Below, piece by piece: positions 3,618-5,333 of a DNA stretch of 45,792 nucleotides. Position 1 is the first letter of the stretch, and each line of letters opens with the position of its first letter. Both the position numbers and the translations under genes were made by a program. Source of the DNA: an uncultured Collinsella sp. (GTDB lineage: Bacteria > Actinomycetota > Coriobacteriia > Coriobacteriales > Coriobacteriaceae); contig URBB01000001.1 in the NCBI GenBank assembly GCA_900545835.1, positions 1 through 45,792 on the forward strand, given 5' to 3'. The notes beneath the pieces are model-generated. The model worked only from the letters and a program-made list of their open reading frames with translations. It did not search any database and was not told the origin of the DNA.

Positions 3618-3707
3618 TGGTGTCGGAGGCGGGACTTGAACCCGCATGACCAAAAAGCGGTCACTAGCACCTCAAGCTAGCGCGTCTGCCAATTCCGCCA
3701 CTCCGAC
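3618..3707 (-). tRNA. tRNA-Leu(GAG)
   Basis: GTCGGAGTGGCGGAATTGGCAGACGCGCTAGCTTGAGGTGCTAG..., long variable arm, GGTTCAAGTCCC T-arm, encoded CCA. Confidence 0.96.
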
Positions 3708-3764
3708 ATGCTATGTTGTTGATTCGCAGTTCGTTTTGTTCGACCCGCGCGTTCAACGAGGAAG

Positions 3765-3794
3765 ATAATAACCTATGATTCGAGAACTGTGCAA
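3765..3794 (-). promoter_or_regulatory. Putative promoter of tRNA-Leu
   Basis: TTGCAC-18 nt-TATTAT on minus strand with A-rich upstream sequence. Confidence 0.55.
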
Positions 3795-3851
3795 GCACTT
3801 TTTTCAAAAAAGTTTACGAATTTGTAAATGCGCTGGTAGATCTATATGTTC

Positions 3852-3976
3852 GGCCCCGAATCGGTGTTGCCTCCCGGCGCGTCCTCGGGCATGAGCGATA
3901 TTTTGCTTCGCACTTCGTGCTGCAAAATATCGCTCCCCCTGCGGAATGCGCCGGGAGGCAACACCGATTCGGGGCC
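3852..3976. repeat. Long palindromic hairpin element E1 (125 nt)
   Basis: Perfect 29-bp arms 3852-3880/3948-3976, inner perfect 14-bp arms 3893-3906/3922-3935, apical GCAC-TTC-GTGC. Confidence 0.9.
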
Positions 3977-4066
3977 TGCAAATACATACTTCAGGCACAG
4001 TTCTCAAACATGTTCTGGGAGCTGATATAAATTTAGTGGCTCGGCTTTGCCTAGCCCTTATATAAG

Positions 4067-4092
4067 GAGGCCGGAGCTAAAGCTCCGGCCTC
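4067..4092. other. 12-bp perfect hairpin
   Basis: GAGGCCGGAGCT-AA-AGCTCCGGCCTC. Confidence 0.7.
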
Positions 4093-4156
4093 GCTATCTT
4101 TCCCATTAGATTAAGTGAGCGATCAAGGAATCGCACCCCTCTGCAGTGGTAACACA

Positions 4157-4288
4157 GGGCCCGTGCTGGACTTAGTTTTCAGAACATTCCGCAGACCAGG
4201 AAACCCCCTTATCCGCGGCTCCGAAGGAGCAGGATAAGGGGGTTTCCATGGTCGAGGACGTTCTGAAAACTAAGTCCAGCGCGGGCCC
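4157..4288. repeat. Long palindromic hairpin element E2 (132 nt), inverted structural homolog of E1; begins 16 nt downstream of the oppF stop
   Basis: 29-bp arms 4157-4185/4260-4288 (one mismatch), inner 16-bp arms GGAAACCCCCTTATCC/GGATAAGGGGGTTTCC, apical GCTCC-GAA-GGAGC. Confidence 0.9.
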
Positions 4289-4304
4289 GGACGATAACAA
4301 CCGG

Positions 4305-5333
4305 CTACAGGTCGATGTGCGATTCCTTGATCGGGAACGGCTCCGCGAAGTGGCACGCACAGCAGTGGCCCGGTGCGACTTCCTTAAACTCGGGAAGCTT
4401 CTCAGAGCAGATACCCTGAGCGATCGGGCAGCGAGTGTGGAAACGGCAGCCGGTCGGCGGATCCAGCGGTGACGGCGGATCGCCGGCAAGGATGATACGC
4501 TTGCGAGTCTTCTGGATATCAGGGTCGGGAACCGGTACGGCAGACAGCAGCGACTGCGTGTACGGATGGTGAGGCTCGCTATAGAGCGTCTTCCAGTCCG
4601 AAACCTCAACCATCTTACCCAGATACATAACGGCAACGCGATCGGAAATGTGCTGCACGACGGACAGGTCGTGAGCGATAAACAGATACGCGGTACCGAA
4701 CTTGTCCTGAAGTTCCTTGAGCAGGTTCAGAACCTGGGCCTGAATGGAAACATCCAGAGCGGAAACCGGCTCGTCGCAGATAATCAGCTTGGGCTTCAGC
4801 GCAAAAGCGCGGGCGATACCGACACGCTGACGCTGGCCGCCCGAGAACTCATGCGGATAACGGTTGATGTGCTCGGGGTTCAGTCCGACAACGTCGAGAA
4901 GCTCGCGGACGCGCTCAATGCGCTCCTCCTTGGTGCCCACGCCATGAATGGTCATGGGCTCGGAGACGATCTCACCGATGGTCATACGAGGGTTGAGCGA
5001 AGCATAAGGATCTTGGAAGATAAACTGCATCTCGCGACGCATGTCCTTGATCTCATGCTTGCTCATCTCGGCAACATCTTTGCCCTGGAAGAACACCTTA
5101 CCGGCGGTCGGCTTGGTCAGGCGCATGATGGTACGGCCCGTGGTGGACTTACCGCAACCAGACTCGCCGACCAGGCCAAAGGTCTCGCCCGGATAAATCT
5201 CGAACGAAATGTCATTCACAGCAGAGACGACACGCTTGGAGAAGCGCTTGGCGAACATGCCGGACTCAGCGGGAAACTCCTTAGAAAGGTGCTCGACCTT
5301 CAGCAGCGGAGTACGCTCGTTGGTATCTGCCAT
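4305..5333 (-). CDS. oppF: Oligo/dipeptide ABC transporter ATP-binding protein (OppF/DppF)
   Basis: Walker A GESGCGKST, FSGGQRQR, ICDEPVSALDVSIQAQ, C-terminal oligo_HPY/Cys motif. Confidence 0.9.
   Translation of the reverse strand: MADTNERTPLLKVEHLSKEFPAESGMFAKRFSKRVVSAVNDISFEIYPGETFGLVGESGCGKSTTGRTIMRLTKPTAGKVFFQGKDVAEMSKHEIKDMRREMQFIFQDPYASLNPRMTIGEIVSEPMTIHGVGTKEERIERVRELLDVVGLNPEHINRYPHEFSGGQRQRVGIARAFALKPKLIICDEPVSALDVSIQAQVLNLLKELQDKFGTAYLFIAHDLSVVQHISDRVAVMYLGKMVEVSDWKTLYSEPHHPYTQSLLSAVPVPDPDIQKTRKRIILAGDPPSPLDPPTGCRFHTRCPIAQGICSEKLPEFKEVAPGHCCACHFAEPFPIKESHIDL

Follow-up and report, generated by a model that had tools for sequence, protein, structure and literature searches.

The window analysed here is a stretch of 45,792 nucleotides (nt) from an uncultured Collinsella sp. 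(assembly GCA_900545835.1, contig URBB01000001.1, positions 1 to 45,792). Near its left end, between a tRNA-Leu gene and the end of a gene encoding an oligopeptide-type ABC ATPase, lie two long, mutually inverted hairpins, which we call E1 and E2 (Table 1). An earlier note on this DNA had described two hairpins of about 130 nt with common geometry and loop motifs, and both pairing and folding agree with that description and its placement. E1 and E2 are built to one plan: a 29-nt arm, the heptamer GTCCTCG, a few bases leading to CATG, a stem of 13-16 bp, a mini-helix capped by C-TTC-G, the returning strand of the stem, the sequence TGCGGAAT, and finally the arm that complements the first. Pairing between the two arms covers 29/29 positions in E1 and 28/29 in E2. 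Folded as single-stranded DNA (ssDNA), either strand of either hairpin reaches -60.6 to -64.7 kcal/mol (z = -12.7 to -15.7), and none of 200 shuffled sequences was as stable; the combination GTCCTCG-N40-70-TGCGGAAT occurs twice in the window, where 0.01 occurrences are expected. The note's upper-stem size holds for E2 (16 bp), while that of E1 has to be corrected to 13-14 bp. It had also called the 29-bp stems unrelated, which is overstated because the arms of E1 and E2 agree at 14/29 positions (15/29 differ); a weak arm consensus runs across the family, although the arms are indeed largely variable. A second, outer inverted repeat, missed in that account, encloses each hairpin. The stop codon of the ABC ATPase gene (TAG, 4305-4307) stands 16 nt ahead of the foot of E2, and the extended E2 rod also has a helix, CTGTAG/CTGCAG, that contains this stop codon.

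Table 1. Features of the hairpin locus and related features elsewhere in the same genome. Positions without a prefix are those of the window.
Feature	Position	Strand	Details and basis
E1, complete long-form hairpin, 125 nt	3852-3976	+	arms 3852-3880/3948-3976, core 3881-3947; covariance model, 133.4 bits
E1 GTCCTCG, 5' half of conserved internal-loop module	3881-3887	+	invariant columns in family alignment
E1 TGCGGAAT, 3' half of conserved module	3940-3947	+	pattern match
E1 upper stem	3894-3906/3922-3934	+	inverted pairing
E1 apical mini-helix GCAC-TTC-GTGC	3910-3920	+	triloop 3914-3916; folding
E1 with outer inverted repeat	3779-4008	+	3779-3792 pairs with 3995-4008; kept in orthologous loci
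E2, complete long-form hairpin, 132 nt	4157-4288	-	arms 4260-4288/4157-4185, B-type core 4186-4259; covariance model, 129.4 bits
E2 GTCCTCG	4253-4259	-	pattern match
E2 TGCGGAAT	4186-4193	-	pattern match
E2 upper stem, 16 bp	4247-4232/4214-4199	-	inverted pairing
E2 apical mini-helix GCTCC-TTC-GGAGC	4218-4230	-	folding
E2 extended rod with 17-bp outer helix	4120-4333	-	4317-4333 (inside the end of the reading frame) pairs with 4120-4136, 17/17; inverted-repeat search
Oligopeptide-type ABC ATPase (ABC_tran + oligo_HPY), co-oriented upstream of E2	4305-5333	-	Pfam scan
GC-rich terminator-like hairpin between E1 and E2	4067-4092		weak T-run on + strand; inverted-repeat search
tRNA-Leu(gag), left neighbour of E1	3618-3707	-	tRNA match
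Promoter-like sites between tRNA-Leu and E1	3740-3769 (+), 3793-3765 (-)	+ and -	sequence scan
tRNA cluster at window start	1-55 (edge-cut tRNA), 98-171 (tRNA-Cys), 207-282 (tRNA-Gly)	-	
P_A, single-copy Y1_Tnp gene	C82:5162-5971 (L211:1468-2277)		C-terminal helix-turn-helix-like tail, no flanking repeats
P_B, RAYT-like Y1 gene, 258 aa	C2:28888-29661		Y1_Tnp match
Second-family hairpin copies	C46:6152-6316, C27:7145-7289, C68:8873-9006, C23:7085-7215, C9:8419-8547, C113:3917-4031		
Further second-family copies	C113:1076-1184, C48:10305-10414, C48:10508-10632, C155:2471-2609, C85:252-372		

E1 and E2 belong to a structure-defined repeat family. In their own genome (1.99 Mb in 177 contigs, 60% G+C), a regular expression allowing at most two mismatches per motif and requiring at least 22 of 29 complementary arm positions recovered 13 long copies, and a covariance model returned the same 13 at 111.6-145.1 bits, along with 11 weaker opposite-strand echoes and one further weak match. 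The model also located a core without its 5' arm (C37:11540-11606) and a short form (C37:11391-11500); with a second short copy at C9:410-516, the genome holds 13 long, two short and one truncated copy. The earlier note had postulated a structure-defined repeat family with shared geometry and motifs, and had reckoned with the opposite outcome, no further copies and no covariation; what the analysis found is at least 16 copies in the own genome, matches across the genus and massive covariation. To assess the pairing, we ran the model on 76 of about 290 collected loci and aligned 87 forward-strand matches. Standard pairs occupy 96.8% of the 4248 pair cells, against 67.8% in shuffles (0/500 reach the observed value) and 35-53% with partners slid by 1-3 columns; fitting the alignment to the model tilts the count towards structure, yet the margin is very large. 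Both sides change in 39 of the 49 pairs, and most arm pairs occur as three or four Watson-Crick types. Of 149 unique copies, 117 have arms of 28-29 bp.

The constant part is a 25-nt apical module, whose RNA version is an asymmetric G-UCC-U-CG opposite CUG-C-GGA-AU: a G opposite AU, UCC/GGA pairing, a U.C mismatch, a C-G pair, a bulged U, and a mini-helix with a three-base loop. The short form consists of a stem of about 38 bp topped only by GTCCTCG-CCGC-TTC-GCGG-C-TGCGGAAT; the upper stem, which it lacks, is therefore dispensable. A second hairpin family of the same genome, with free arms of 25-53 bp and the core ..AGTCCTG-stem-stem-ATTAA-stem-stem-TGCGGAAC.., shares GTCCTG...TGCGGAAC (the GTCCT/TGCGGAA motif) with the studied family, but has different stems and a different core with an ATTAA loop. 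Seven or eight of its 11 copies sit 11-42 nt behind a co-oriented open reading frame (ORF).

The copies of the studied family occupy a narrow position behind genes. For 12-13 of the 15 copies considered in the own genome, a same-strand gene has its stop codon 11-36 nt upstream. Pfam identified 11 of the upstream ORFs, as an OppF-type ABC ATPase (E2), phosphoenolpyruvate (PEP) carboxylase, an MIP channel, pyruvate:ferredoxin oxidoreductase (PFOR), phosphotransacetylase (Pta), GroEL, a class II aldolase, an aminotransferase of class IV, a P-type ATPase, aspartate-semialdehyde dehydrogenase (Asd) and a GHMP kinase; in addition, a GrcA-like glycyl-radical ORF precedes the pair of copies on contig C37. 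Among 138 unique copies with flanks of at least 250 nt, 116 follow a co-oriented ORF of at least 55 codons at a distance of 8-35 nt, 43 have a convergent ORF no more than 80 nt downstream, and 16 have neither type of neighbour. A hairpin with a T-tract follows within 200 nt of the element at 3/14 loci; in the background, 91 of 706 long ORFs have one no more than 120 nt past the stop. At the oppF orthologues of three element-free genomes, the site carries ordinary hairpins, one of them a classical terminator with a T-run. An apparent stop-codon bias upstream of copies (TAG 70, TAA 45, TGA 1) was set aside, as it equals the genome's own usage. TGA is rare for a genome of 60% G+C: the 753 long ORFs with high G+C at third codon positions end in TAG (373), TAA (329) and TGA (51).

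The family is confined to a small taxonomic range. A pattern scan of public contigs returned at least 126 stretches, and among the matches listed all but one are titled Collinsella or Coriobacteriaceae; the outlier, from Rhodovibrionaceae, is without hairpin arms and was discarded. Also discarded were 21 exact pattern matches in viral contigs, which are due to chance because none (0/21) has complementary arms. The covariance model matched 24 of 24 same-genus relatives, two of them weakly, and 0/16 genomes from 12 other families of the order. In an even draw of 81 genomes from the family, 50 of the 52 genomes of the own genus (own genome included) match, 39 of them being rich in the long form (13-25 matches, both strands counted), whereas five other genera yield weak matches alone (E 1e-5 to 1e-12), in 3/3, 8/12, 6/9, 2/4 and 0/1 genomes. 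In the two weakly matching Collinsella genomes, the four matches that were folded proved to be short forms. It would therefore seem that the short form is an old feature of the whole family, while the long form is an expansion within one large Collinsella subclade. The complete genome G021 contains 13 strong copies.

A direct match to a catalogued Rfam family, which by the earlier note would remove novelty, did not turn up: with Rfam 15, the window matches at gathering score are tRNAs alone, and four copy-bearing loci together with window positions 3700-4400 gave only sub-threshold generic miRNA-hairpin and other models. Literature on Collinsella extragenic palindromes or intergenic inverted repeats, in the portions available, does not describe the element, though a bulk listing in the supplements of PMC8040213 is possible. 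The accessible part of that study (Fremin and Bhatt 2021) gives Collinsella RNA candidates without sequences, and those seen are 30-76 bp long and have other neighbour genes. The family is apparently undescribed so far.

Comparison across species revealed loci that persist and arms that turn over. Splitting by similarity produced 43 arm variants, which map mostly to about 15 own-genome loci (6/43 have no match there). The same loci are filled across species, and the oppF site is empty in distant genomes alone, where the flank is unalignable. At six loci (E1 and those of the MIP channel, PEP carboxylase, aminotransferase, GHMP kinase and P-type ATPase) mean between-species arm divergence is 0.22-0.40, against 0.02-0.14 for the upstream coding sequence and 0.10-0.23 for the aligned downstream flank; at most other loci, arm divergence is no greater than that of the downstream flank (0.02-0.15). 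Even where orthologous arms have come to differ at several positions, their pairing holds at 28-29/29. At the PEP carboxylase, branched-chain aminotransferase (BCAT), GHMP kinase and E1 loci, the whole unit, including its wings, differs between species inside flanks that are 90-97% alike. In the window, the B-type core and the inner arm of E2 are those of the asd-locus copy; most orthologues of E2 combine the same outer arm with an A-type core, a pattern that points to conversion from copy to copy.

Exact outer inverted repeats of at least 9 nt, at matching distances from both hairpin feet, were found in 15 of 42 variant groups; one is an assembly fold-back and one an arm extension, and the rest represent about 9 of about 18 loci. 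As a rule their 5' half falls within the last part of the upstream ORF, and at E2 the downstream half is the copy, because the ORF-end sequence is nearly the same in element-free genomes. We rejected for most loci the possibility that these repeats are pre-existing terminators split by insertion, because the 5' half lies inside the upstream ORF and a T-run follows in just one of 14 examined. Templated copying within quasi-palindromes probably made the outer repeats. At locus L084, the start of a Collinsella contig from a metagenome-assembled genome, the palindrome continues without a mismatch for 70 nt or more into the end of the upstream gene, probably an assembly fold-back because it falls at a contig end.

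What the analysis establishes is the anatomy of the hairpins with its covariation, their number and taxonomic range, how they are placed and oriented behind genes, that they persist at their loci, and that arms turn over and cores are swapped. With a probability that we put at roughly 0.55, the family is a palindromic repeat in the manner of repetitive extragenic palindromes (REPs), TRIT and Correia elements, which lies in the 3' untranslated regions (UTRs) of transcripts and shapes or protects mRNA 3' ends by way of a protein-read apical module, while DNA-level processes keep the palindrome perfect; the functional RNA, the effect on 3' ends, the protein partner and the mutational mechanism are what we infer. 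The repeat takes the terminator position behind about 15 housekeeping genes or operons per genome, in the orientation of the gene. Once transcribed, the mRNA end would fold into a rod of about 60 bp comprising a perfectly paired lower stem of 28-29 bp with free sequence, the asymmetric module, an upper stem that varies and, at the tip, a mini-helix with a UNC triloop. This rod may set or protect the 3' end of the mRNA by blocking 3' exonucleases or by serving as a site of processing or termination (RNase III-type or factor-dependent), and the conserved 25-nt module could serve as the docking site of a clade-specific protein. The palindrome could remain perfect, yet change fast, if template switching in quasi-palindromes rewrites one arm from the other and gene conversion exchanges sequence among copies, and the same DNA-level events may have copied upstream ORF ends, inverted, to the far side of the hairpin. 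Of the readings in the earlier note, a structured noncoding RNA (ncRNA) comes closest, with the modification that the element would act in cis within 3' UTRs and not as a free RNA.

The two halves of this explanation draw on different evidence. A role in RNA is suggested by the orientation rule, by the same rule in the second family, by the scarcity of ordinary terminators behind elements and by the ordinary hairpins at element-free oppF sites. DNA-level forces are suggested by the Watson-Crick pairing, the equal rarity of G.U and A.C, the turnover of arms and the outer repeats. A weak hint from transcripts is that contigs of opp genes from three RNA-seq studies stop at 4260, about 4262 and about 4246-4253, that is, at the arm/core border of E2; the contig of a fourth run, whose kind is unrecorded, continues on both sides of E2 with 112 letters of its own between. 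A drop in RNA depth across E2, and the uncovered parts, were discarded as evidence: the contigs give one figure each and cannot rank regions.

Several points weigh against this reading. (i) Pairs in 4321 cells from 149 copies are 96% Watson-Crick, and the mismatches include G.U 37 times and A.C 39 times; such near-exclusive Watson-Crick pairing, in which G.U is no commoner than A.C, fits a DNA palindrome and is unusual for a selected RNA helix. (ii) The position rule is violated by 22/138 copies, E1 itself has no upstream ORF on its own strand, and the counted copies are non-independent, being cross-species orthologues of which many were collected by a pattern in which the motifs and a CTTCG apex are obligatory; the rule is nevertheless valid at nearly every locus. 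(iii) The hairpin has no U-tract, its 3' flank being TGCGGTAAC-like, and the claim in the title of PMC3993855 is that hairpins without a U-tract should not terminate with mycobacterial polymerase; if so, the element should therefore not terminate alone. (iv) The RNA runs come from relatives of this strain, their contigs are uninformative on 3' ends, strand and level, and stable hairpins also interrupt cDNA synthesis and assembly. (v) That the upstream genes are highly expressed is inferred from gene identity. An attempt to choose the strand from wobble pairs was abandoned when an A.C excess in 13 copies was gone with 149 (39 vs 37). The earlier note's strand argument from c-GAA-g, a stable ssDNA triloop, fails likewise: the loop variants TTC, TAC, TGC and TCC keep T-N-C, which is G-N-A on the other strand, and are compatible with either, and the mismatches have no strand asymmetry.

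Comparison with known gene-end repeats places the element among them without making it one of them. TRIT is described, in the available part of Gardner et al. (2011, PMC3152330), as a genus-restricted conserved hairpin at Mycobacterium stop codons for which a binding factor was proposed, and TRIT and Correia repeats are now read as putative RNase III substrates that shape 3' ends (Cell Rep 2026, PMC13714241, from the accessible text). TRIT and the Collinsella element are both genus-restricted actinobacterial palindromes with conserved sequence and structure, narrow placement at stop codons and no U-tract. As far as the same sources go, TRIT is short (about 50 nt were excised in the 2026 study), has 147 copies, overlaps the end of the coding sequence (about -8) and conserves its stem, whereas the Collinsella element is 125-132 nt long, has about 15 copies, begins 8-35 nt after the stop, and combines free stems with conservation of the apical module only. 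With its conserved motif, genus restriction and narrow placement at stops, the Collinsella element can be classed as TRIT-like, a likeness that we would regard as one of kind and not of homology. Correia elements, according to the part of PMC13714241 available, are foldback repeats of 100-160 nt that form long double-stranded RNA in 3' UTRs, as the present hairpins would; they are cut by RNase III, shape transcript 3' ends, and vary in presence between close relatives, as in the cysE example. An intrinsic terminator likewise consists of a GC-rich hairpin right behind a stop codon, at operon ends and convergent junctions, but the Collinsella hairpin, with TGCGGTAAC-like sequence in place of a U-tract, is four to five times longer and has an internal-loop module common to unrelated genes, and we did not assign it to that class.

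REPs are palindromes of about 20-40 nt with a GTAG head. They occur in hundreds, are conserved in sequence and flank a RAYT (REP-associated tyrosine transposase) gene, whereas the Collinsella repeat has about 15 copies, hypervariable arms and no adjoining RAYT. Membership among REPs and bacterial interspersed mosaic elements (BIMEs) with a RAYT was therefore rejected: neither a conserved short palindrome, nor some 100 or more copies, nor a repeat-flanked RAYT beside them was found. Assignment to REPINs, which have inverted REPs as arms and near-identical copies, was rejected too, as the arms here are variable and the apex is conserved. The likeness to REP/BIME lies in being extragenic palindromes at gene 3' ends (116/138 here), in being targets of IS3-family or other insertion sequences (ISs), and in the presence of Y1/RAYT-like genes in the genome, so far as the partly available sources describe them. 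REPs are reported, in the accessible parts of PMC2817692, PMC3333891, PMC1525189 and PMC12306157, to stabilise mRNA and to stall ribosomes near the stop codon.

If the preferred reading of a 3'-end element is right, these hairpins would be a fourth lineage-specific gene-end repeat beside REP, TRIT and Correia, with conservation the other way round, the apex being fixed and the stems free. Collinsella is a common commensal of the human gut, and since groEL, fba, pta, PFOR, ppc, asd and opp end in the same element, its reader could co-ordinate or protect major mRNAs. The family is also a natural experiment on the upkeep and change of long perfect palindromes in bacterial chromosomes. More modest uses are as a strain-typing marker for Collinsella, as a candidate 3'-UTR stabiliser for expression in Coriobacteriia, and in recognising the element as a cause of assembly breaks.

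Correia elements are miniature inverted-repeat transposable elements (MITEs) with conserved terminal inverted repeats and TA duplications. A rival explanation is that the present hairpins are selfish or relic mobile DNA, a MITE- or REPIN-like foldback that inserted in one orientation into ssDNA or hairpins at heavily transcribed gene ends, was perhaps moved by a Y1/HUH enzyme, and is harmless and without RNA function. We consider this unlikely. The palindrome is strictly Watson-Crick and its mismatches lack strand asymmetry, short conserved wings (5' ..TGTCC, 3' TGCGGTAAC..) belong to the unit, and the wholesale differences between species at the four loci named above, like the exchange of cores exemplified by E2 and the asd locus, are what movement would produce; the genome is, moreover, rich in other palindromic repeat families. 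However, dozens of species share the same set of about 15 occupied loci, and recent identical copies were not observed. In contrast to Correia elements, the arms are unconserved, no duplication was seen and loci are stable, and we rejected membership among MITEs: of conserved terminal repeats and a target duplication, there are only shared GGSCCC-like ends, and the 5' (..TGTCC) and 3' (TGCGGTAAC..) flanks are unlike. Nor was an autonomous partner with the element's ends found, and an invariant apex over free stems is the reverse of MITE and REPIN conservation.

The enzymes that might move such DNA are two Y1_Tnp/RAYT-like genes in the own genome, both of which score below the NCBIfam cut-off for REP-associated tyrosine transposase. 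Orthologues of P_A (76-99% identity) occur in 37/39 long-form-rich genomes and in 0/42 others of the family draw, a co-occurrence confounded by shared descent, and two 99%-complete genomes with 13 and 23 model matches have no P_A orthologue. The contigs of the two Y1 genes, C82 and C2, hold no model match, and the copy nearest to P_A in genome G021 is about 75 kb away. On both sides of P_B lies a 51-nt inverted repeat, 94% complementary and composed of two CTCATTGGGGACAGAC units (C2:28708-29756; L212:1285-2333); this 14-nt motif has 18 genome copies at no more than one mismatch. The earlier note's suggestion of a REP/HUH substrate thus found no backing, since neither gene adjoins a copy and P_B has its own, different repeat. 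P_B and CTCATTGGGGACAGAC together form a REPtron-like arrangement separate from the hairpin family.

A bolder and decidedly doubtful reading would give P_A another part. The 25-nt module (GUCCUCG - mini-hairpin - CUGCGGAAU), common to both hairpin families and to the short form of other genera in the family, may be the handle of a structure-reading clade-specific protein, possibly a domesticated P_A, whose action, or templated repair, would rewrite the arms and copy ORF ends inverted. If true, this would be a structure-defined, sequence-hypervariable palindrome system of gene ends, distinct in kind from REP, REPIN and MITE with their conserved stems.

A site that works at the level of DNA, a cruciform-prone palindrome whose protein-read apex binds gyrase, a nucleoid protein or another structure-specific factor and so manages supercoiling or domains, a role described for REP/BIME, strikes us as improbable. 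The palindrome is perfect, folds with equal energy on both strands and lies behind genes expected to be heavily transcribed, and REPs have been reported to bind gyrase, IHF and Pol I (PMC1525189, in its available text); but an orientation rule (116/138) is unexpected for a symmetric supercoil sink, about 15 copies are few for structuring a genome, and no known binding protein points to such a role. Also at least compatible with an accessible DNA hairpin is a loop-seeking IS3-type element that hit the triloop of one copy. In G021 the hairpin of the PFOR locus is split exactly at the triloop by this 1450-bp IS, with a TAC duplication (L270:1970-3419, C1:1995311-1996760). The IS has a 478-aa ORF with helix-turn-helix and rve domains and ends in TGAACTGCC..GGCGCAGTTCA. 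All five full copies with both flanks (L270, L282, L278, L279, L283) lie in inverted-repeat loops, and a T-run follows each of the other four hairpins. IS1397 and ISKpn1 are IS3-family elements that target REP palindromic units (PMC1525189, as far as accessible), and the 1450-bp IS looks as though it targets hairpin loops in the manner of IS1397.

Still less probable is a family of free structured ncRNAs, or decoys for a module-reading factor, with E1 as a stand-alone gene. E1 does lack an upstream ORF, its strand offers the promoter-like and terminator-like sequences listed in Table 1, and its 5' region and outer helix are conserved in orthologues; yet most copies stand directly behind ORFs with no room for a promoter, Rfam 15 has no match for them, and the promoter-like site of tRNA-Leu to the left of E1 can alone explain the conservation there. 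The consensus ends of integron attC sites are RYYYAAC/GTTRRRY, and attC-like sites that fold from a single strand for a tyrosine recombinase to read, as the earlier note had suggested, can be dismissed almost entirely: the likeness is general (conserved geometry, free stem sequence, conserved unpaired bases), but the copies are single and dispersed behind housekeeping genes at loci stable across species, there are no cassette arrays, and the termini are GGSCCC and not R-box-like (intI was not searched for).

Two further observations concern the surroundings of the hairpins. The own 2-Mb genome contains 241 inverted repeats with arms of at least 20 nt, including classical conserved-arm families (AGTTGCGGTGAAATAG.., TCTCAATCTGTAACAG.., GAGCGTGGATAATCTCCCACTTT and TTGGGGACGTTCTTAAATGAC). 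In RNA run X1, a relative is represented by a contig with 756 extra letters between its matches to positions 4019 and 4030, which point to an insertion or replacement between E1 and E2 in that relative.

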